From positions 41,664,001 through 41,728,000 of the forward strand of contig OX597823.1 of NCBI GenBank assembly GCA_951406725.2: a DNA stretch of 64,000 nt, in the 5' to 3' direction. The position numbers and the translations under genes were made by a program. Under the pieces are notes generated by a model that worked only from the letters and a program-made list of their open reading frames with translations, made no database searches and was not told where the DNA came from. This DNA comes from Octopus vulgaris (taxonomy: Eukaryota). This document shows, in pieces, positions 3,278-64,000 of this stretch. The first letter of the stretch is position 1; every line of letters begins with the position of its first letter.

Positions 3278-4766
3278 TATATATATATATATATACATAT
3301 GAGAGAGATAAATCAAAATCTCTTGATTACATTTGATATTTTGTGTGTAGGTCATCACAGTCTATTACTAGACTTTTTCCTGATAAATGCTGACATTGAG
3401 AGATAAGTTTAAGTTCAACAAAAACAGAAGAAAACAAAAAAAAAAAAACATTTTGGTAGCTTACATTTTTCTCTTCTTTAGAAGATTATTCTACCTCAGA
3501 CTATTGAAACAATTGCATTGAAATGCTAACTAGCATATGTAACATTCATAGTCATATATATATATATATATACTTTGAAAATACTTAAAATATTTTTCAT
3601 TTTCTTTTTTTATATTAATTCTAGCAATCTTCAGGTCTTTGATGTTTTGGTCTGCAGTATTGCAGTAGTATTTATCTCCACCACAAGAAATTCTATGATA
3701 TCTAAAATATCTGTATTATGATTCAATCTAGGAAATTTTGTTTCTAAACACAATATGCTGATTATCAAATCAGTAAAAACTCTGACTAGTGGTTTTCTAG
3801 AAATTTTTGCAATCTGGTATTAACAACTTATAGATGTGAGATGTCATCCTCAGCTAATTATCTAGTTGATAAAACTGTTGTAAAAATACAGACTGCCCAT
3901 AATTATCAATGGAGTGAGTATATTAATATTTATACAATACAATATTGTACATCCATTTTGACCAATTTTACCGATCTGTTTTGCACAGGAGAGTTCAGGG
4001 AAACCTCAATCTTCATGTTCATTAGAATGCTTGGGTAGGAAGAATACTCTTGTGTGTGGAACTGATTGGTAAAATTGGGTGAAATGGATCTGTAATGCTG
4101 TAGTATATAAATATTAACACACACACACACACTCATACACACACATACATTTTGAAAGAGAGAGAGAGAGAGAGAAAGAAAGAGAGAGAGAGAGAGATAG
4201 AACTAACAAATTGCCATACATACACTTCCTCTTTCTCTCTCACCCTCTCTTGCACATGAACACTTACAGAAAACAAGCCATCTTGTAATGTCTTATAATC
4301 AAGTTGATATCTTTATAAAAAAAACTACAATGAAAATAATGTTAAATGACCAACTTTCATACATCATTATATTCTATTCAAGAGATCCTTACATGTATCT
4401 TAACAAAGTAATTTGGGCCATTTTTATTTTTTACATCGTATGATATTTTTATTCTTTATTTATGATTTTTATAGTTTGCTGTATAGTTTATAATTATAAT
4501 TATTTTGTTTATGTTTTGATTTGTTGTGTTCATGTTTTTGCTGTTATTTATTGCTTGTTTTCAATAACTGGCATTTTTACCAATCTCAATGGAATCTAAT
4601 GTATATAAATATGTATAAACACACACATTTGTTAGATGTTAAAACAAAGCATGTATATGTACATAGCTACTACATATATGTATAAATTCACATATACATA
4701 TATAGAATAACGTGATATCTATCTTTCTATCTATCTAGCTTATGTATAGATATATATATACATATA

Positions 4767-4923
4767 GGGAGAGAATTCATAAAAAAACAGGACGAAGGTA
4801 TGTGGTGTAGACAACAATCAGATGTATTAGTTTAATGCTCGGGAAATGAAGAGGTCTTTAACGTTTCGAGCCTACGCTCTTCCACAGAAAGGAACACAGA
4901 AAGAAACAGGGAGAGAAATAAAG
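4767..4923 (-). mobile_element. Penelope-like terminal fragment with a degenerate hammerhead motif (4856-4891)
   Basis: Minus strand reads cttt CTGTGGA a gagc gtag gctc GAAA cg TT aaag. Stems I and II pair, stem III is the palindrome ACGT, and core A6 is mutated. Confidence 0.6.
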
Positions 4924-5239
4924 TATGTTGTCATCCCAAAGCTGCAATAGAAGACACTTGCAAAAGGTGCCACACTGTGGAATTGCATGCAAAAGTATGT
5001 GGTTGCAAAGTGAACTCACAGTTTTATACTGAGTCCCCTAGCATGGTATGTTGGGCAAGTGTCTTCACTATGTGAGCAAAACAATGCTATGATGTTTATA
5101 TTCCTTGCTGCTGGTTGCTCTGCACTTTTGAAGACCAATGGAATAAAAAAAATCATTCACTTGCAAAACAGCTTAGGTTTTGCAACAGGAAGGACATCTA
5201 ATCTCAAATTTTCATCTGACCTATGAGCACATGCAAAAA

Positions 5240-5545
5240 CATTCATCATCATCATCAATATACTGACATAGGTTGAATGGCTTGACAGGAACTGGCAAGG
5301 CTAGGGGCTGCACCAGGTTCCATAGTCTGTTTTGGCTGGTTTCTATTGCTGGACGCTCTCCCTCATGCAAACTACTTTGCAGAGTGTGCTGGGTGCTTTC
5401 TACATGATGCCATCGCCAGCTCTTTTATGTGACACCATTACTGCATTTTATGGGCACCTTGGTTTTAGGATCTGAATTCTGCTGTGGCAAGCAGGTTGAG
5501 TACAGCAATGCACCACATATTTCAGTCGTCTGTCATTTTCTTCAT
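5240..5545 (-). mobile_element. RTE-related 3' UTR/tail fragment
   Basis: (cat)n tail followed by tctgttttggc...gctggacgctctccctcatgcaaactactttgcagagtgtg, shared with the 8612, 38989, 44287 and 57003 copies. Confidence 0.7.
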
Positions 5546-6540
5546 AATTATAGCTTTATTACAGTTAATCTTTATTTTTATTTTCTTGTTTTATCCTAGA
5601 AGTGGTTTATATGTCTTCTTATGAGAAAAGTTGTGCATATTATATCTAAAATCTATATTGTGATTGAATTTAATTTTGATACTGAGTTGAGCAAAAGCCA
5701 GCAAATGACCATGCAACAAAACTTGTTCTGATATAATTCTTTAATCTAACTGCATTAATATCCCACTGAAGCCATTGCAGACATTATTAAAAGAAAATTT
5801 AGACTGATGGACAAAGATTGAGGATGATGTTTCCATGATTTTGAACATGTAGTTATATATTTTATTGAATAAATCAATGGATTTAAATTATAGTCCTGCA
5901 AAGCCACCATGGTGTATCATAGTTTTTCTATGTCATTTTATGCTGCTTAATTCATCTGAAAGTTCTTTACCATTTTCACATCAGTATTGTAAATTTCTGC
6001 AAATGACACACACTTTGCGGTCAAAAGTTTTATCAAGATAGACAGGTGTTGTCAGAGGAATAAAAACACAATTTTCTTTGCAGCATCAAATCATTCCATT
6101 AGCCCACTAGTGAAAATCAACAATGATATGCAAAGGAAAACATAGATGTCCAAAATAAATGATTCTCTCCACATGTGTCAGGATCCTTTGTCTGGTCTTC
6201 ATCATTTGACCAATCCTCATAAAAAAACTTCTTTCATTTTCTCTGTTTGCTTGGAGTTTAATTTCGATTTACAGATGGTTAATGACATGTTTTTCTTCTG
6301 TCAGCAGAGTGCCATCAAAATGATTGCACAGCTTCTGCAGTTTTTTGATTAGTACAGAATGAGTGGAACAGATATTTTACACAGCCATTTGTGATGCTAG
6401 TGAAAGTAGGCAGCAGGTGGTAATGGTACTTTCATATAGCTACTATTTTTTTTTCTTTTTAATTATAATCATAGTATGAATCAGTCCTCAGTGTGAATTT
6501 GTTCTGCAGAATCATTTGTCAACCAGTAAAATGTGGGAGG

Positions 6541-6564
6541 ACTTTTTTTTTGCCACACCCTGTA
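6541..6564. mobile_element. Isolated Tc1/mariner-like terminal inverted repeat end
   Basis: ttttttgccacaccctgTA is the reverse complement of TA-CAGGGTGTGGCAAAA, a typical Tc1/mariner-type terminus. No partner end found. Confidence 0.35.
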
Positions 6565-6781
6565 TTTTTAATATTGCTCCTTCTGTCTCAATAGTGCTGA
6601 CTCTTGTTTGTGATGCTATACTACAAATATTTCTGAGAGCAAGAATTCCAGACCATATGGATGGCATGAATATGAATTTCAATGAAGACATCTATTTAAT
6701 TAATTGCTCCTGTTACTTCAGTTCTGGTCTTTGGTATCAGATTAATTCCAGTATATACTACAGTACCAATTTAGAATGGAT

Positions 6782-7915
6782 TTGATACTGGAAATTTAAT
6801 GTAAAGTAATACAGAAAACATTGAAAAATGTCTACAGAAATAATTTATTCCTTTATCCAAATCATTTCCAATATTTGTCCTCATATTATGCTGAAATATA
6901 TTCTCTGGAAGTTCAAAGACAAAATACTTTTAATAATCTGTACAACAACTGATTCCATGCTTGTTGAATAGACAACATTTATCATATATCATCTTCAAAC
7001 TATAGATTTTAACTTTAAGGTTCAAATGTGATTTCTATCTTTCAAAGCAGGTTCTGAGATTACAAACTTTATAAAGGAAAGGGGGTCAAAGACAGGACAA
7101 TGGTACAAATAAGGCAGTCAAATACAAAGGATTAAAAAGAATATGACTTAAAGGAAAGCTTTTCATGAATTTCTTGAAATCTTTTCACAAATTTCTTGCC
7201 ATATTGATGCCATGAATTGAATTTGCCATAGTGCTGGGCCAATTTGATACCATTTAGACTTTGTGGAAATTATTTCACTCAATCAATTCTGATTGACCAC
7301 TGAGTAGTAATTAATAGCTGTTGTGCGTGAGAAAAATCTACCATCTTTTTGAAATATATGAAGAGCTGTTATGAATATTTGCATTAGTTCTGAAGAAGGT
7401 GAAAAAGTAATTTGGGACAACATACTGTTGTATATGTGTCATAGAGTCATTGTATGGCATCAACATGGTATGAAAATTATAAAAGGATTTCCTTTAAGTA
7501 ATATCCTGTTTTACTGTAAAATCCTGTATTTGACTGCCATATCGGCACCATTGTCCCATCTTTGACCCTACCACCACCACCACCACCACCACCACCATCT
7601 TGTTTCCTTTATCAAGTTTGCAGTCTCAAAACCTGCTTTCTCACTGCAGTCTTTGAAAGAAATTTCATATGAATCTTAAATTCAAAATCTAAGATTTGAA
7701 GGTGATGTATGATAAATGTTGTCTATTCAAAATGTGTGGAATCAAGTGTTGCATCAACTATTATTTTAAAGTATATTTGTCTTTAATCTTATAGAGAATA
7801 TTTCAGAACAACCTTCGGACAAATTGAAAACGTTTTGGATGAAGAAATATGTCATTTCTGTACATATTCTTCAATGTTTTCTATACAATTTTTATATTAA
7901 ATTTCCAATATCAAG
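6782..7915. mobile_element. Foldback/long-TIR element, arms about 6782-7215 and 7452-7915
   Basis: Collinear reverse-complement blocks, e.g. ttgaatagacaacatttatcata / tatgataaatgttgtctattcaa, ggcagtcaaataca / tgtatttgactgcc, and ggaaatttaat..agaaaacattgaa / ttcaatgttttct..attaaatttcc. Confidence 0.85.
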
Positions 7916-20770: not shown

Positions 20771-20889
20771 ATATGTTTGTGTGTGTGTGTAGATTACTGT
20801 TTGTTTGATGTCACATTATGCATAAAAACAACATTACAATGAAGATTTACTCAATACATTTTAGTTAAATACATAATAAGTTTTAGTTA

Positions 20890-21002
20890 GAAGGAAAAGA
20901 GTGATAGTGACTTCGAAGTTTCAGCTTATCTCCATTTATCAGACTATCTGATGAATCTGAGGAAGTCAAAATTTCGAAGTCACTGTCAGTGTTCTCCTTC
21001 CA
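20890..21002. mobile_element. Inverted pair of PLE-like ends, each with a degenerate hammerhead motif
   Basis: Minus: gatagt CTGATAA ... GAAAC TTCGAA GTC actatc. Plus: CTGATGA ... caaaatttcgaaGTC actgtc. Same family as 52572-52690. Confidence 0.6.
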
Positions 21003-21394
21003 AAAGTTTTAAAAAATATATATTCTTTCATTCTTTTACTTGTTTCAGTCATTGGACTGTGTCCATGCTGGAGCACTTACCTAAAAAGATTTAATTAAAA
21101 ATCATTATAATCAAAATAATTAAAATTCATTATAGTTAAAGCAGTTTCTTTCAGTGTCATCTGTAGTGTACCCTGAAGTCCCAAGCCTGCCTTTTTTTTA
21201 AATACCAGATCAGGACATAAGATCATGACAAGCAGTTCACAAGTGTGACCCCCATAAGCCAGAGTGGCTGTTCCAGCTCATCTCTTTTGCCATCCTCTGA
21301 GGCATTGCCTTTTCCATTCTGCCCACTAGGAACATGGGGCAGTCTGAATTACAGGAGATTGTACATTCCACTCTTTAATGTAATGATATTCCTT

Positions 21395-30201: not shown

Positions 30202-30556
30202 ATAATAATAATAATAATAATAATTGTGTACAGTGCTCAGGTGCACTACAACTCATCTAAAGTGTATATATAATCAGGTGTAGTTTCGGCGGATTTCGGA
30301 AAGCATGAGGGCCTTAAAGGATGCAGTGTCATGGCAGTCAACAACTGACGCAGGCAGTTTATTCCATGCTTCAGCAACTCTGAGCGTGAAAAAATGTTTC
30401 CGAAAGTCATGGGAGCTGTGTTGTTTTCTGACTTTGTAGGCATGTCCACGTGTGTTAGACACATGGAGATCAAAAAGGTGTTCAGTGTTGTTATTGGTGA
30501 GGTGGTTGATAACCTTGTGGGTGTCTACCAAGTCCGTCGCCAGACGCCGGAGCTTC
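30202..30556 (-). mobile_element. CR1/L2-type LINE 3' end, 5'-truncated
   Basis: Open frame LRRLATDLVDTHKVINH...NTRGHAYKVRKQHSSHDFRKHFFTLRVAEAWNKLPASVV...SFK has the TRGH and FFxxRVxxxWNxLP ORF2 C-terminal motifs. The tail is the (taa)n run at about 30202-30223. Confidence 0.88.
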
Positions 30557-30778
30557 TTGACAGGGAAAAGTCCAGCTTTGATTTTAAAATGCCTACTTTT
30601 ACATTGTGCAGGTTCCTCAGGCTTTTTGAGAAAATATTAAAAAGCTGTGGGCCCCTGAAACCCATCCTCTTACAGTAACTGGTCCTGTAGTGCGATGGCA
30701 ATGCTGGGATATATGGCACTATGTTTTGTCATCCCATTCTGGCATTGGTGTACCTTTCAAATGCCAAACTTTGGCACA
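30557..30778 (-). mobile_element. Second non-LTR retrotransposon ORF2 C-terminal fragment (host of the previous insertion)
   Basis: ...SHYRTSYCKRMGFRGPQLFNIFSKSLRNLHNVKVGILKSKLDFSLS (GPxLFNxLP and KxxLD-like motifs). The frame appears to resume left of the insertion (RVSDEPR, about 30180-30200). Confidence 0.7.
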
Positions 30779-30789
30779 ATTCCTTCTAT

Positions 30790-30975
30790 GTATGTGTGTG
30801 AACAAGCTAGAAAACACAACAATCAAAGGTTGTGGAATAAGTACAGTGGTATTGGACGCTCAGGAAAAGAAAGAAAATATAGTGAATTTCACGTTTTGAG
30901 CGGAACTCTTAATAAGAAATATAGAAAAATTCTAAAGAATGGAAGATGGAGAAAGATACACACACGGTCTCATGT
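30790..30975 (-). mobile_element. PLE-like terminal repeat (family of 34315-34530)
   Basis: Reverse complement aligns to 34320-34520 (attggacgctcaggaaa, acgttttgagcgga). The hammerhead core is decayed. Confidence 0.7.
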
Positions 30976-33667: not shown

Positions 33668-33724
<57 letters not shown>

Positions 33725-33727
<3 letters not shown>

Positions 33728-34240
33728 GTCACTAAATATGACTAAGGTGTTAGAAATACCTACATTGCTAGAAATAAGAGCTAAAATGCTATAATGCTGT
33801 AAGTCAAATCACATAGTTTGCATACATATATACTGATAGAGACTGTAATAATCCGAAAACACAGTTTGAGAATTCCTTATACTGGCAGTCAGTTTCAGCA
33901 ATTTCCATTGCCTCATCAGTAAGGACTAGCTTGACTTGAGTAGATTCTGGACTTAATTCTCTATCAGTATATATGTCTTCATCATAGAAACCTGTGATGC
34001 TAATGTGTATACAGAAAATTAATGAAGGCAGCACTTCGCAAAGTTTAACCAAAAAGGAAAACTATAATCATCACTAAATGTCACTCGGGACAGTTACCAT
34101 TCCCGCCAGTATATATATGTATGCAATTGTGTGCTTTGATTGCAGCATTAGAGCATTTTAGCTCTTATCTCTAGCAATGTAGGTGCTTCTAACACCCTAG
34201 TCACATTTAGTGACGATTAGAGTTTTCCTTTTTGGTAAAA
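33725..34240. mobile_element. Non-autonomous element with nested inverted repeats enclosing a hammerhead ribozyme
   Basis: Outer IR about 33725-33855 / 34085-34217; perfect 19-bp IR 33824-33842 / 33958-33976; third IR about 34047-34088 / 34196-34238. Confidence 0.8.
33874..33925 (-). ncRNA. Type I hammerhead ribozyme with intact core
   Basis: Minus strand: uccuua CUGAUGA ggcaau-ggaa-auugcu GAAA cug-acugc-cag UA uaagga. Stem I 6 bp, stem II 6 bp (G-U at base), stem III 4 bp. GUA cleavage triplet at 33882-33880. Confidence 0.8.
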
Positions 34241-34314
34241 TATTTCAAACTGCAGTCCACATTAATTTATATATATGTAGGTATGTATGTGTATATATAT
34301 ATATATATATACAT

Positions 34315-34530
34315 TCAAAATGTGACCGCATGTGGACTGTTGGGAATTTTTTTTTTCCTCCGTCTTCCCTTCTTTGGATCTTTCCCTTTCCTATGTTTCT
34401 GACGAAGAGCTCCGCTCAAAACGTTAAACTCTCCTTCTTTCCTTCTTTCCTGAGCGTCCAATAATACTATACTTGTTCCATGTCCTCGCGTTGTTGTGTT
34501 TTCTCTTTGTGTTTTCATGTTTGGATTAAC
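34315..34530 (+). mobile_element. PLE-like terminal repeat with minimal hammerhead motif (34395-34429)
   Basis: gttt CTGACGA a gagc tcc gctc AAAA cg TT aaac, with one core change (G12 to A). Flanked by (TA)n on both sides. Confidence 0.7.
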
Positions 34531-35302: not shown

Positions 35303-35557
35303 TATTAATTATTGAATTGCAAGAGAATGGTAATTGTATAATCATTTTCATTAGCTTACAGCTGTTTCTGTCATGAGAAGCTCTGTACTCAGAGCTGAAT
35401 GCTTCTGCAATGTCATATAACTTTATTTTAATGGTTTTGTGGAAGCTACGATATGTTATACAAGCACTCAGCTCTCAAAGCTTCTCATAGTGGAAACAGG
35501 TGTAAGCTAATGATATTGACTACATAATTACCATTCTCTTGTCATTCACTAATTAAT
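35303..35557. mobile_element. Hairpin element (~100-bp inverted arms), PLE-derived or MITE
   Basis: caagagaatggtaatt...tcattagcttacagctgtttc...atgagaagct pairs with agcttctcat...gaaacaggtgtaagctaatga...aattaccattctcttg. Confidence 0.8.
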
Positions 35558-42750: not shown

Positions 42751-43633
42751 AATGTACATATATGTGTGTGTGAGTGTGTTTCTCACTCTCTCTCTCTCTA
42801 TATATATATAGATAATAAAGGTGGGTATATATTATATCAGGTCTTCCCATAAATTCTGTTTGAATTTTAAATAATGAAAACAAGTGATCAAATGTTATAT
42901 TTATTTGAAATTTAATCATCAATGTACTCGGTAATTTAAGCTGAGAAATAAACCAAGGAAACAATATAATTTAGATCAACTGAATAGGGCAGTTTCAATC
43001 AAAATAAATGGCTAACTTTAACCATTTTACATTGAATAGAAAAGATAGGAACATGGTAATTGTTGACTTTGCAAATGTATTCACTATTGGCTATAGGTCT
43101 GAACAATGGCAAATGCTCAGAAAATACAGTTGCCATGAGAAATTCACCTCCATGAGGGAGTTCTCACACAATGGAATTATAGCAAGGGTCAACAGTAATG
43201 GAGACATAGCATAATTTGCAGCAATAAACAGTGTTAAATAGGGTTTTATACTAGCAGCTGGAGTGTTCCATTTATTTTTTATATCAATGCTGCAGGCTGC
43301 CTTCTATTATCTTGGGAATGGAGTTTATATAAATTCCTGCCAAACTGCAGATCACTTCAGCATTGTGCATTTTAGAGAAAAATAATAAGACCCATTCAGA
43401 TTCTTACAAAAGGAACACTGTAAACAGTTTACAATGTGTTAGGTATGCACATATCATAATACTTACGGTGGGTTGTGAATTCATTCTCCATTGTAAAAAA
43501 AAATATTTTGGTCATCTCAAAATATACATCATAAAGATAGCAGTAGTACTGCAGACCATCTCTGTCAGTACACAAAGAAAGAACCATAATTGATGGCATC
43601 AATCCAAAACTATACAATATATGTATATATATA

Positions 43634-43830
43634 TGTCACTAAAGCGACTAAGGGCACCAGTGAACACCAGTATTGCTAGAAATAAGAGTTAAATCAATTC
43701 ATAGCCACAAGAAGCGCTTATCTTAATGACTGACAAAGGAGGATAAGTGCTTCTTGTAGCTATGAGTTGTTTTAACTTTTATTTCTAGCAATACTGGTGC
43801 CGAATAGTGGTCTCTGTCATTTTAGTGATG
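43634..43830. mobile_element. ~195-bp hairpin element related to the 33725 arms
   Basis: caccagtattgctagaaataagagttaaa..tcatagccacaagaagcgcttatc pairs with gataagtgcttcttgtagctatga..tttaacttttatttctagcaatactggtg. Confidence 0.85.
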
Positions 43831-43986
43831 TATATATTTCTGCCTTTCAGCTGTATAATTGCGAACAAGCCACCCTTATTATTTGTAATTTTCACTTTCA
43901 CCATTCAGGAAATCAGTGTAAGTTTTCTACAATAATCTTATAAACTGACAAGGGAAATTAAGTTTAACCGAAGGTGCAAGGTGAAA

Positions 43987-44032
43987 GTCACTGACGAACT
44001 TTAATACAAATGTGAAATCACTGTGATCTGGT
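43987..44032 (+). ncRNA. Hammerhead-like motif, core intact, weak stems
   Basis: gtca CTGACGA actttaatacaaatgt GAAA tca-ctg-tga TC tggt. Stem III 4 bp, stem II bulged, stem I includes two G-U pairs. Confidence 0.4.
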
Positions 44033-44246
44033 TCTGCTCACACACACACACACACACATATATATGCATACATGCACACAAATATGAAATAGAAGCAGTG
44101 GTTTTGAAATAAATATTAATCATACATGCTTAATGCATATGCTTTGTTTATTTGCTGGTAGACTGCAACCTGGCATGGTGGAGATGATTCTCTCAAAGTA
44201 CTGGGTGTTAAAACACCTGAAAGTCATGGACAAGTGAGAGAACCCA

Positions 44247-47012: not shown

Positions 47013-47359
47013 AAGATTGATAGGTAGATAGAAAGATAATCAGTTGTAATATCAATAAGCAATAATGTATGAAACTTTAATTCACAAACTTAATGTCAAA
47101 GCCAATTAAAAATATATATAGATGTACATGACCACATGAGTTCAGGCAGCACAAAAATAGTGCTCAGTACATGGTGTATTAGGAATTGTATCAGCCATAG
47201 AAATCATGTAGCTTGATGTCTTTGTACTTGTTGGATCCTGTTAAGCCATCCATGCTAGCATTGAACATAGACATTAGATAATGATGATGGCATACATACC
47301 TACATAACACAAAAACATATATATATCTTTAGTCTTGTGACACACAAACATAAATATAT

Positions 47360-48212
47360 GTTTAGTCTTGAAAGCCTTTTGTAACTGCTTCAGTAATTTG
47401 GTGCTGTACTTTCCACTAATAGTGTGGCTCTTTTGAAGATAGTTAATAAATACGATGCTTTTTACATCCCAAAACACTGAGATCATCACCTTCCTTGCAG
47501 ATCAGAGGACTTCGGCCTTCTTTAGAACAGGTGAGGGGTGTTTTCGCTGCATGGATTGTCTCTTTGTCTCTGGTACAAAATGATGAATCCACGCCCATCC
47601 TGGGTTAGGAAAGATTCAAAGAAATCATTTGGATCTACCTCAAAGAATGCCAGACTTTCTTGCGCTGTGATCAGCTTGGTGTGATTTTAATCAGTTGTCA
47701 GATGACATGGCACCCACCAAGCAGAAAAGTTTGTCATACCAAGTTCATTGTGTGAAATATTTTCAACTCTCTCACAGGATATGCTAGTAGCATTGGCAAT
47801 TTAATTTATTGTCTCTTGCTTGTCATCCATTTGTATAAGGTGAACACAACCAATGTTTTCCTCCGTGGTGGCAGTTGCAGGACGTCCAGAACTTCAGTCA
47901 TCTCCCAGACTCTTCCTTCCCCTCCTAAATTCAGCTGCCCACTTTTGCAGTGTTGATAAAACTGGAGCATCATTCCCTAATGTAGCAACCATGTCAACAT
48001 GAATGTCCTTGGGAGCTAAACTCTTTTTCTGGGGGTATTTGAAAATTTTATCCATTTTCAAGAGAAGTCACTACTAGTTACTTTCAAAGCCTTCTTTGAA
48101 TAGTCAGATGTCTCTTTACTTGGAAAGAAAGAAAGTCGTTATTAATAAGAAGGGCTGAAATTAATGAAGAAATCACAACTCTGGCATCATTCCATAGTCA
48201 GCCCAACCTCAT
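47360..48212 (-). mobile_element. Mariner transposase pseudogene with one decayed end
   Basis: From ATG at 48055: MDKI..QKKSLAPKDIHVDMVATLGNDAPVLSTLQKWAAEFRRGRKSLGDD*SSGRPATATTEENI...RWVPCHLT...AGKVMISVFWDVKSIVFINYLQKSHTISGKY. Has the HTH and WVP motifs, with stops and frameshifts. Confidence 0.92.
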
Positions 48213-52399: not shown

Positions 52400-52720
52400 C
52401 AACTCATACCAGATGAACTTGCTTTCCTCCTATCTTCTTTCTCCCTTCCTATACATTTATTCCCCAGACCTACATAAACCAAACCTAATTGTCATTTCAT
52501 ATAGCTTCATCTACCCCAGAAAACCACTTTCCCAAAGACTATATATACAACCAAATGGAATCCAAGTGTAGTACAGTCTGATGAAACTAGCAAGCTGAAA
52601 CTTTGAAACACAGTCACCCCTCTTCTTGGAAAAGTTTACAAATGATGCACTCTACTACAAGTATTGAGTAATCTTTCAGTTTAATGCTAAATTGTTTTTA
52701 TAAATAACTTGACATAAAAC
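52400..52720 (+). mobile_element. PLE-like terminal fragment with decayed hammerhead (52572-52617)
   Basis: acagt CTGATGA aactagcaagct GAAAC tttgaa... Downstream gtattgagtaatctttca matches the reverse complement of about 20840-20857. Confidence 0.5.
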
Positions 52721-59066: not shown

Positions 59067-59989
59067 TATAGTTAGCATATTCAAATTGTGTTTTGTGAAA
59101 TCTCTCATAAATATTTTTCTTTTTCTAATCAAAAACAAATTTTGGAATTCTACTTCTTCGAATGTAATAATACAATCTCTGGTAGCTTCTTAATTTCATA
59201 GATTCTGTTGAAATACCTCTGTTGGTGGTAGAAGTGGTGGCGGTAGTCAATCTTCTGATCAAACCAAATAAACTGTGTTTCCATTTGTGTTTCAAATTGC
59301 TGATATTATCAGTCAGTCGTAACTCCTGTCAGAGAAATACCTCTAAAATTAGGAATGGTTCTGATTTATAAGTTAGAGATAAAAAGATATAGTCTTTGAC
59401 CCAATTCAAAGTTCACAAAAATGATATACTGAGTTTTAAGATCACCAAGACATTCCTAAGTACATTACTTTCCTAAGTAATTCTCTTAGTAACAGTCAAA
59501 GTTGGTTTAAAGTATTATCCTTATGAAAAAAAAAAGTGCATGGATATTATGAGTAGATGCAAGAAGCAATAACAGATAGTCCTGAATGACTAATTTAGAT
59601 ATGTTTGAGAGGTATTTGAGCCTGTAAAGGCTTTTCAGGGAAGTTTGTTGTAGGAAAAAAGGATCGCTATCAGTCAATAATGTTGATTAATTTCCAATAA
59701 AGGAAGTTTCACTTCTTAGTTCAAAGTTACCTATCTTGTTGAGTGCTGAAGAGAACTAGTATTTGAAATTTATTCATCAGTCAAATAGAGGGTGCTCTGA
59801 ACTGATTTAAGTGTCTTAACACCTTTTTGTCTTATAAGAGACATTTTTTTCTCCATGGCAAAAATACAATAAAATGCCATTACAGGTTCAAATACATCTC
59901 AAACATATTTGAGTTGGACTTAAGCTTTCATACACTGATATCTTTCAATGAAAAAGAAATGATTATGACAGAGTATCATAACAAGCACT

Positions 59990-62644: not shown

Positions 62645-62703
62645 TATATGTTAAATGTAGAAGCAATGATGAGTGACAATTCTGTAAATAATAATAATCA
62701 TAT

Positions 62704-62828
62704 GCTTAAAGCTTATAAGCATTCGCCATGTATTGACTAAAGGAAATAGTCTAATATTGGGGCTTGTATTCCCCAATATTAGACGTTTTCTTTAGTCAAT
62801 TTATGGTGATCAGTTATAAAGTTTGAGC
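62704..62828. repeat. ~125-bp imperfect hairpin
   Basis: Perfect inner stem gtctaatattgggg / ccccaatattagac with an 8-nt loop, next stem attgactaaag / ctttagtcaat, and weaker outer pairing. Confidence 0.85.
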
Positions 62829-64000
62829 TTATATATACAGAGAGAGAGAGACTGACAGACAGACAGACAGAGAGGGATTTGGTAATGCAAGCAGGAAAAT
62901 AGAACTCAAAACTTGAATACTTATTTTCTATTATTTATAATTAGCAGAAGTTACAGAGTGACTCAAAGATCAAGTGTTTTCTGTATTGACACTTGTTAAA
63001 CTTATATATATGTATATGCATATGTGCGTACACACACACACAACATTTGACAGCTGCTCAGACTGCTGGAAGCCAATGTCCAATGATATCTAGAGGCGTG
63101 TTTCTTTTTTCTTTAATAATCCAGCTGATGCTAGCAACATGAAACAAAAGATGTTCAGGTTAAACTTCCATCATACTTTTCTGCTCAAGACTAAGTGAGG
63201 TGACACAGGCTCAAAGAAATCTTCCCTACAGTCTTTTAGTGCATACTAGATCCCATCATGATTTCTCATGTTGATTGTACAGCCAGGCAATAACTGTGAG
63301 CCATCCAGTCTCACTTGTCATATTCAGTATTACATTTATGAATTTGTTTTGTAAGATTCTTGATGTGAAATCGTGTATTGAAACAGATATTGTTATATTT
63401 TGGGACAGTTACTCATGCACTATATATTTGTTCTTCACTTGTTTATTATTTTTCCTATTTTATTCTATGACCATTGTCAAGAAATCTTTCGTCACACATC
63501 TGTGATCTCTTGAGCCACTCTTCCATCCACGTGTTTCCTCCTCATCTCAAAGCAGTATTATTATCAGAAATACATTGGAGGTCTGAGTTGTTCAATTTTT
63601 TAATTAGCTTATATGAATAATGGGTGAAGCAAGGCACCATCTCTATTATTTCTCCTTGATGATGCCATTTCATCTATATAGCACAGTCACAATTCACAGA
63701 GTAACAATATCTTGCTGATAAATATTCTAAATTAATCTATACTGTTGGAAATCTTCATGTATCTGTATTTATCAGGTTCTTTATTATCAAAAGTAAATTA
63801 GAGAACTTATAGACATAGAAATATTGTAAACTATAGCATGGCCGGTCATGAAATAACAATACACGCACTATTTGAGATGAGATGCAAAAGAGAATTGTTG
63901 ATATTAAATAATATTGGAATATACATGTAAAGAAATCAGAGAAGTAAAGAATCTCTGTTAGCGGCATTCTTAGGGTCTGCTATCATTTGATGCATTCAAT

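Follow-up and report, generated by a model that had tools for sequence, protein, structure and literature searches.

A window of 64,000 nucleotides of Octopus vulgaris DNA (contig OX597823.1, positions 41,664,001 to 41,728,000), AT-rich and full of microsatellites, contains a hammerhead ribozyme motif enclosed by nested inverted repeats. The question raised by this locus is what kind of element brings a ribozyme and inverted repeats together, and whether the ribozyme acts there as a self-sufficient monomer, as an earlier note on this DNA had proposed when it described a retrozyme-like mobile RNA in MITE-like packaging.

RESULTS

A type I hammerhead on the minus strand

In its minimum-energy fold, the minus strand between 33925 and 33874 forms a type I three-way junction whose stems measure 6, 6 and 4 bp and whose loop III has 5 nt. 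The segment has CUGANGA, GAAA and NUH around the junction and an open helix I, which is what defines type I.

33874..33925, minus strand: type I hammerhead, with helix I at 33925-33920/33879-33874, core CUGAUGA at 33919-33913, helix II at 33912-33897, core GAAA at 33896-33893, helix III at 33893-33881, and a GUA site with the predicted cut between 33880 and 33879

Stem II opens with a G-U pair in this copy, where the canonical pair is G-C. When both strands were scanned with a complete type I descriptor, this segment was the sole match in the window, and 1,670 Mb of simulated sequence (first-order Markov, modelled on the window) gave no match with stems of 6/6/4, 16 with stems of 5/4/3 and 582 with stems of 3/3/2. 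The complete type I hammerhead that had been reported on this strand is thus borne out by its fold, by the descriptor and by the lack of simulated equals, and the motif and its nested inverted repeats are real, far beyond chance. A merely fortuitous arrangement of letters could appeal to the folding energy (-11.2 kcal/mol, with 8 of 200 shuffles as good and a modest z of -1.8) and to an Rfam score under the gathering value, yet the simulation, the preferential sharing of the core among family copies and a frequent variant that restores the canonical G-C pair (see below) leave this reading a negligible probability.

The comparison with Rfam, named in the earlier note as a check, held in part: a hammerhead model did match, but this was Hammerhead_3 only, with a score of 25 bits (gathering score 48.5; E of 0.007 in a 761-base search) and in a different register, and no Rfam hammerhead model reached its gathering score for the 33925-33874 element. 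We rejected a type III reading in the Hammerhead_3 register because just 4 nt remain for helix I. Over the whole window, the 150 of 263 Rfam result rows covered contained microsatellite-driven miRNA matches only. Stems I to III persist in a 546-nt context, with mean pair probabilities of 0.75, 0.88 and 0.55, and energy prediction places the fully active monomer fold at ~0.14 of the ensemble for the window allele.

Anatomy of the inverted repeats

The 19-bp inverted repeat around the hammerhead is perfect (33824-33842/33958-33976), as had been claimed. The outer arms, previously described as imperfect and ~130 bp long, are real as well; BLAST aligns them at 88% over 110 nt (33723-33832/34112-34219), and a weak extension towards 135-150 nt is all that lies beyond. 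A third inverted repeat does overlap the right arm (34016-34089/34195-34268, 81% over 74 nt), which moves the right end of the element from 34240, where it had been placed, to 34268. Both outer ends lie in TA-rich microsatellite, and the adjoining (TA)n tract noted earlier was found again on the left. As read from the sequence, these inverted repeats represent the 3' end of one retroelement, present three times in 5'-truncated form and arranged as follows.

33675..33724: (TA)n microsatellite, probably the target of the insertion, next to the 3' end that lacks the tail
33723..33990, minus strand: copy 1, pLTR-like part, a 5'-truncated 3' end with the hammerhead and without the tail; homology to the family ends at ~33990
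33723..33832, minus strand: high-copy terminal part of the family, with its most conserved motif at ~33763-33800, common to the hairpin 43627-43837
33824..33842: 3' arm (in the hammerhead sense) of the 19-bp stem, which closes a rod tipped by the hammerhead
33958..33976: 5' arm (in the hammerhead sense) of this stem; in several X9 contigs both arms are covered completely or for the most part
33991..34015, minus strand: 25-nt linker from the tandem fragment to copy 1, near single-copy at its 33991 end
34016..34089, minus strand: copy 2, a short 3'-end fragment in partial tandem (direct repeat), with a 49-nt tail at 34064-34016
34085..34111: head-to-head junction of copies 2 and 3, near single-copy
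34104..34268, plus strand: copy 3, an inverted 5'-truncated copy with a 49-nt tail at 34220-34268
34269..34311: TA-rich microsatellite sequence at the tailed 3' end

Copy 1, in which the hammerhead cut site lies 157 nt from the tail-less end of the element, is matched by several contigs of X1, X3 and X9 that align from 33818-33856 to 33986-33990. Copy 2 has the direct orientation and lies 342 bp upstream of the end of copy 1. Copy 3 is truncated ~30-45 nt 3' of the hammerhead and continues weakly to ~34085, with a possible 5-nt overlap with copy 2 (by eye, weak). The 49-nt tail occurs on copies 2 and 3, i.e., on two of the three, and also in family contigs. Inward from 34112, family contigs (loose ends in X1, X3 and X5) carry letters that match the 33860-33832 stretch, so the right arm belongs to the hammerhead unit, which it continues, and is no terminal repeat of its own. 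The flanks show no target-site duplication (their best shared word has 6 nt), and being microsatellites they would mask one of TA.

The absence of credible coding capacity stated in the earlier note was upheld: the longest frame through the unit has 85 aa from stop to stop and no Pfam match. The frame that starts in the hammerhead core carries a stop and gave no credible homologue (0 of 7 candidates scored), and neither a reverse transcriptase nor a GIY-YIG domain was found in the window copy or could be linked to the family. One candidate homologue of the core-start frame, P0012, was rejected because it is a tandem-repeat sequence whose score is the sum of 19 weak matches of at most 24 bits each.

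A multi-copy family

Contigs of 4 of the 24 listed public runs, with four organism labels, were aligned at an 80% cut-off (1,963-2,677 records aligned per run; best word shares of 0.37 and 0.28); no RNA run was among those listed. Since summed contig depth is no copy number, we use it as a relative measure only and express it in contig-equivalents, the unit being the median depth of eight listed pieces in each run. The contigs do not reconstruct the locus itself from end to end: none of the listed pieces covers the entire element, and word sharing was at best 0.37.

In all four runs the contigs reveal a family of many copies that preferentially share the hammerhead core, in agreement with the repeated non-coding element that had been postulated. 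Summed depth peaks at ~4,500-7,500 contig-equivalents in the terminal motif of both arms, 40-75 nt inside the end and not at the very end, and stands at 135-229 in the hammerhead core and 21-37 in its flanks, the core bin being 4.6-5.7 times as deep as the flanks in 4 of 4 runs. Terminal fragments exceed hammerhead cores ~30-fold, which is expected under 5' truncation. Depth drops from ~22-35 contig-equivalents at 33972-33990 to ~1-3 at 33991-33992, and it is 0.4-1.6 at 34086-34104, the junction of copies 2 and 3. Among the 40 of 217 substitution rows listed, 3 of 52 hammerhead positions vary versus 16 of 71 flank positions (Fisher p of 0.012) and none of the 13 core positions does; indels, left out of this count, cluster among those listed in the helix III loop. 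Conservation of the core among copies, on which the earlier note had made its proposal depend, is therefore found. In the 3' arm of the 19-bp stem, positions 33837 and 33840 differ in at least half of the family depth. The exact pattern of the hammerhead had no match in metagenome and viral contigs, and that of the arm had none in metagenome and genome contigs.

In the contigs, the interiors between the arms vary, arm-to-hammerhead joints occur in other copies, and opposite-strand joints fall at 33755-33784 with arm lengths that differ between contigs. One X1 contig connects the hammerhead with the tail, of which it covers 8 nt (to 34023). At 33801, 99-136 contigs per run leave the window copy with one shared consensus, pointing, as far as contig letters can tell, to a large sister subfamily with a different interior.

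A MITE is a class II foldback element, and the packaging of the hammerhead had been likened to one. According to this reading, a MITE or another DNA foldback element would have captured a hammerhead-bearing piece between its terminal inverted repeats, in line with the 110-nt inverted arms beside TA, with the related hairpin at 43627-43837 that has the same arm ends and no hammerhead, and with the many contigs that join arm to arm over other interiors. The anatomy speaks against it on several points. The arms are asymmetric, the right one running 49 nt further with a tail on that side only, and in other copies this right arm leads on inwards into sequence that adjoins the hammerhead. The element also contains a third, directly oriented copy of the end, contigs differ in how long their arms are, and no target-site duplication was seen, although microsatellite flanks would mask one of TA. 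What had looked like packaging is better described as an inverted 5'-truncated copy (the right arm) and a direct partial-tandem fragment with a tail (the third repeat), and we regard a foldback DNA element as improbable.

The other proposal of the earlier note, a retrozyme, deserves more weight, although we still consider it unlikely. The locus would then be a solo unit of a non-LTR retrozyme, a non-autonomous repeat of 270-350 nt whose tandem transcripts are cut to monomers, circularised and re-inserted by proteins of Penelope-like elements (PLEs). The canonical core, the lack of an ORF and the rod-like fold agree with this, as do the 342-bp spacing of the partial tandem, which lies within the 150-450 bp given for animal retrozyme units in the available text of Cervera and de la Pena (2020, PMC7229834), and the X1 contig that continues from the hammerhead into the tail. 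Monomers are moreover described as common and derived from pLTRs in the accessible part of a recent report (Li, Clavereau and Pollet 2026, 10.64898/2026.07.22.740005). That same part requires two consecutive units, however, and the element has a single hammerhead. At 33991-33992, the junction that a 342-bp unit would have, depth is ~1-3 contig-equivalents per run against 22-37 just inside, a comparison to be read with the reservation that contigs can hide collapsed arrays elsewhere, and the excess of terminal fragments over cores is the one that 5' truncation predicts. With one hammerhead and no family-wide tandem unit, the element thus falls outside the definition of a retrozyme.

Allelic forms of the hammerhead

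The window copy differs from the family majority at 3 of 52 hammerhead positions. At 33897, the canonical G10.1-C11.1 pair, replaced by G-U in the window copy, is present in 46-54% of the family depth; the letter found at 33907 in 57-70% reduces helix II to 5 bp with a 6-nt loop; and at 33885 the majority letter is A (66-83%), which turns helix III into a 6+1+6 palindrome. With the majority letter at 33885, all 4 letter combinations (the letters being unphased) give a predicted dimer minimum in which two hammerheads are linked by their palindromes, and a predicted monomer minimum in which the core is bound by the 3' half of helix III, leaving at most 0.02 for an active-type fold; without that letter, the predicted probability of an active-type monomer is 0.07-0.31. 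The palindrome of the majority form is thus predicted to sequester the core when a copy is alone and to pair two copies with each other. Of the three loop indels listed, one is predicted to keep the double-hammerhead dimer on a palindromic background and two to lose it. The earlier note had seen here a real loop and a monomeric ribozyme, unlike palindromic motifs; by these predictions the 5-nt loop, monomer-favouring form is a minority allele of the family, and the family itself looks to be of the palindromic, dimer kind seen in other animal type I hammerheads. It offers a natural allele pair one letter apart, one form with a predicted monomer fold and the other predicted to fold as a dimer only, which would test whether PLE hammerheads cut only in tandem transcripts.

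One might still suppose that the window copy is retained by the host because it functions as a monomeric ribozyme and cleaves a minus-strand transcript. Its core is intact, the monomer fold is the predicted minimum of this allele and keeps its stems in the longer context, and the 19-bp clamp is perfect in this copy. On the other side stand the three departures from the majority, including the replacement of the canonical G-C pair by G-U, and the small share of the ensemble, ~0.14, taken by the fully active monomer. The arms are furthermore 12-19% apart, suggesting an old event if they were identical at insertion; by our own arithmetic, a 13-nt core would stay intact by chance with a probability of ~0.25-0.5 at this divergence, so that in an old insertion an intact core is unremarkable. 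Retention by the host is accordingly a very improbable reading.

Motifs with a long palindrome are also found elsewhere in the window, as decayed motifs with a helix III of 10 nt (20942, minus strand) and 11 nt (43991, plus strand), neither of which folds as a hammerhead today. Such motifs number 3 in the window against 0.02 expected, with descriptor thresholds that were set after seeing them. Apart from its long palindromic helix III, the locus has no unusual trait. It is conceivable, though we hold it only tentatively, that a helix III of 10-13 nt serves as a switch in octopus hammerheads, a single copy hiding the core and two copies forming an active double ribozyme, within a short, non-autonomous, Penelope-mobilised family of hundreds of hammerheads and thousands of hairpin-shaped ends.

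Other elements in the window

Several other sequences in the window resemble parts of the element. A second hammerhead family has two decayed motifs head to head at ~20940-20950 (20887-21003) and a third copy at 52578 on the plus strand (52566-52645); its helix III is a 10-nt palindrome, perfect in the 20942 minus copy, and its helix II and part of its core have decayed. The hammerhead-like remnant at 43986-44033 (plus strand) has an intact core, a weak helix II and a 5+1+5 palindrome as helix III, and lies 150 bp from the hairpin 43627-43837. This TA-flanked, diverged hairpin has arms that share the terminal motif of the family, has neither hammerhead nor tail, and probably consists of two inverted truncated ends of a sister subfamily.

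Two copies of another piece, 74% alike, at 34340-34530 (plus strand) and 30809-30954 (minus strand), contain a minimal hammerhead with a broken core, and we take them to be pLTR-like ends. The former begins ~70 bp to the right of the element, ends in (TA)n and has no real similarity to the hammerhead unit (score of 33). By eye, a 10-nt inverted repeat (34252-34261/34332-34341) brackets the right microsatellite and ties the tail of copy 3 to the start of this neighbouring piece.

Further imperfect foldback elements with AT-rich ends lie at 3914-4126, 35304-35557, 59599-59908 and 62700-62832, mariner transposase fragments at 47277-47501 and 47897-48067 (minus strand), and a LINE-like C-terminal remnant, 83% identical to an Octopus vulgaris protein (best of 10 matches), at 30277-30636 (minus strand). 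A Pfam search of 150 of 206 filtered frames, covering few of those below 13.8 kb, gave the two mariner pieces and no host exon, and no tRNA gene was found.

DISCUSSION

Based on the sequence, we propose that this locus is probably an old, dead-on-arrival Penelope-like insertion in the octopus genome, made of three 5'-truncated 3'-end copies. According to the available text of Craig et al. (2021, 10.1101/2021.04.23.441226, PMC8557442), PLE insertions show a partial tandem, an adjacent inverted 5'-truncated copy, a tail of 30-40 bp at one end and a bias towards (TA)n. In the octopus locus, the partial tandem and the inverted 5'-truncated copy beside it are both present, the hammerhead lies close to the 3' end and the insertion is in AT-rich or (TA)n DNA; the one-sided tail found on two of its three copies has 49 nt versus the published 30-40 bp. 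The link to Penelope drawn in the earlier note is supported by the three-copy anatomy with its one-sided tail and TA-rich ends, which, tail length aside, matches the described PLE layout.

A PLE protein, perhaps from an autonomous parent, would have nicked TA-rich DNA, and reverse transcription would have begun at one of two internal sites, yielding ends with or without the 49-nt tail. Two such internal starts that explain the tail, and cleavage at AT-rich sites, are described in the accessible portion of Frangieh et al. (2024, PMC11167929). Synthesis may then have stopped early and switched template, giving the partial tandem and the inverted copy. The hammerhead would be the pLTR ribozyme of the family and, to go by the literature, would cut tandem precursors as a dimer; in the window copy, a minority letter breaks the palindrome, so that the monomer fold becomes the predicted minimum. 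The available texts of both studies call the function of PLE hammerheads unclear (Craig et al. 2021, PMC8557442; Frangieh et al. 2024, PMC11167929). The hammerhead of PAc, a Poseidon element of Anolis, was reported in the latter to be dispensable for insertion in vitro and to cut only with the protein present, and the predicted activity of the octopus hammerhead is therefore not assured.

Annotated Penelope families exist in the Octopus vulgaris genome, as stated in the accessible part of a 2026 repeat study (PMC13282606), in whose available main text the word "ribozyme" is absent. Our literature searches, whose scope lay outside Repbase, Dfam and Lunse et al. 2016, found no description of octopus hammerheads, and the patterns searched for were absent from one supplement file each of Craig et al. 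and Cervera 2014. The family may thus be unreported as a hammerhead carrier. The locus as such is ordinary: hammerhead-bearing, folded-back Penelope ends have already been described, and the window copy is old. For repeat annotation it matters that retroelement ends may account for many of the hairpins in octopus genomes that look like MITEs.

Comparison with known systems

With the canonical endonuclease-positive PLE units (Penelope/Poseidon, Neptune, Nematis and Hydra), as presented in the available text of Craig et al. (2021, PMC8557442), the octopus locus shares 5' truncation, a partial tandem, an inverted copy, a tail at one end, a TA-rich target and a hammerhead near the 3' end; it differs in having no ORF or clade assignment and in a tail of 49 nt instead of 30-40. 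Within this group, PAc offers the closest view of the 3' end, since the portion of Frangieh et al. (2024, PMC11167929) at hand describes two alternative 3' ends, with and without the tail, downstream of the hammerhead, as well as AT-rich targets. The ORF of PAc starts inside its hammerhead, whereas the equivalent octopus frame has a stop and no credible homologue.

Animal non-LTR retrozymes, in the accessible parts of the two reports that describe them (Cervera and de la Pena 2020, PMC7229834; Li et al. 2026, 10.64898/2026.07.22.740005), are likewise non-coding and a few hundred bases long, with a canonical type I core, self-paired RNA, low GC and a proposed PLE origin. The octopus element, known here from DNA alone, has in contrast a single hammerhead, no tandem array, no family-wide unit and an inverted-copy layout.

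MITEs resemble the locus in being short and non-coding, with inverted arms beside TA and very many related hairpins, but the octopus arms are asymmetric, variable in length and continuous with the interior, and the element has a third internal copy and no visible target-site duplication.

Finally, the minimal hammerheads of metazoan PLEs are similarly of type I, with G10.1-C11.1 (in about half of the octopus family depth), a palindromic helix III and predicted activity as dimers, and they too are mostly single dispersed motifs from truncated elements. The octopus core is without the extra nucleotide that they typically have between core position 9 and helix II, its helix I has a full 6 bp, and its helix III is a 13-nt (6+1+6) palindrome where theirs is absent, small or extremely short.
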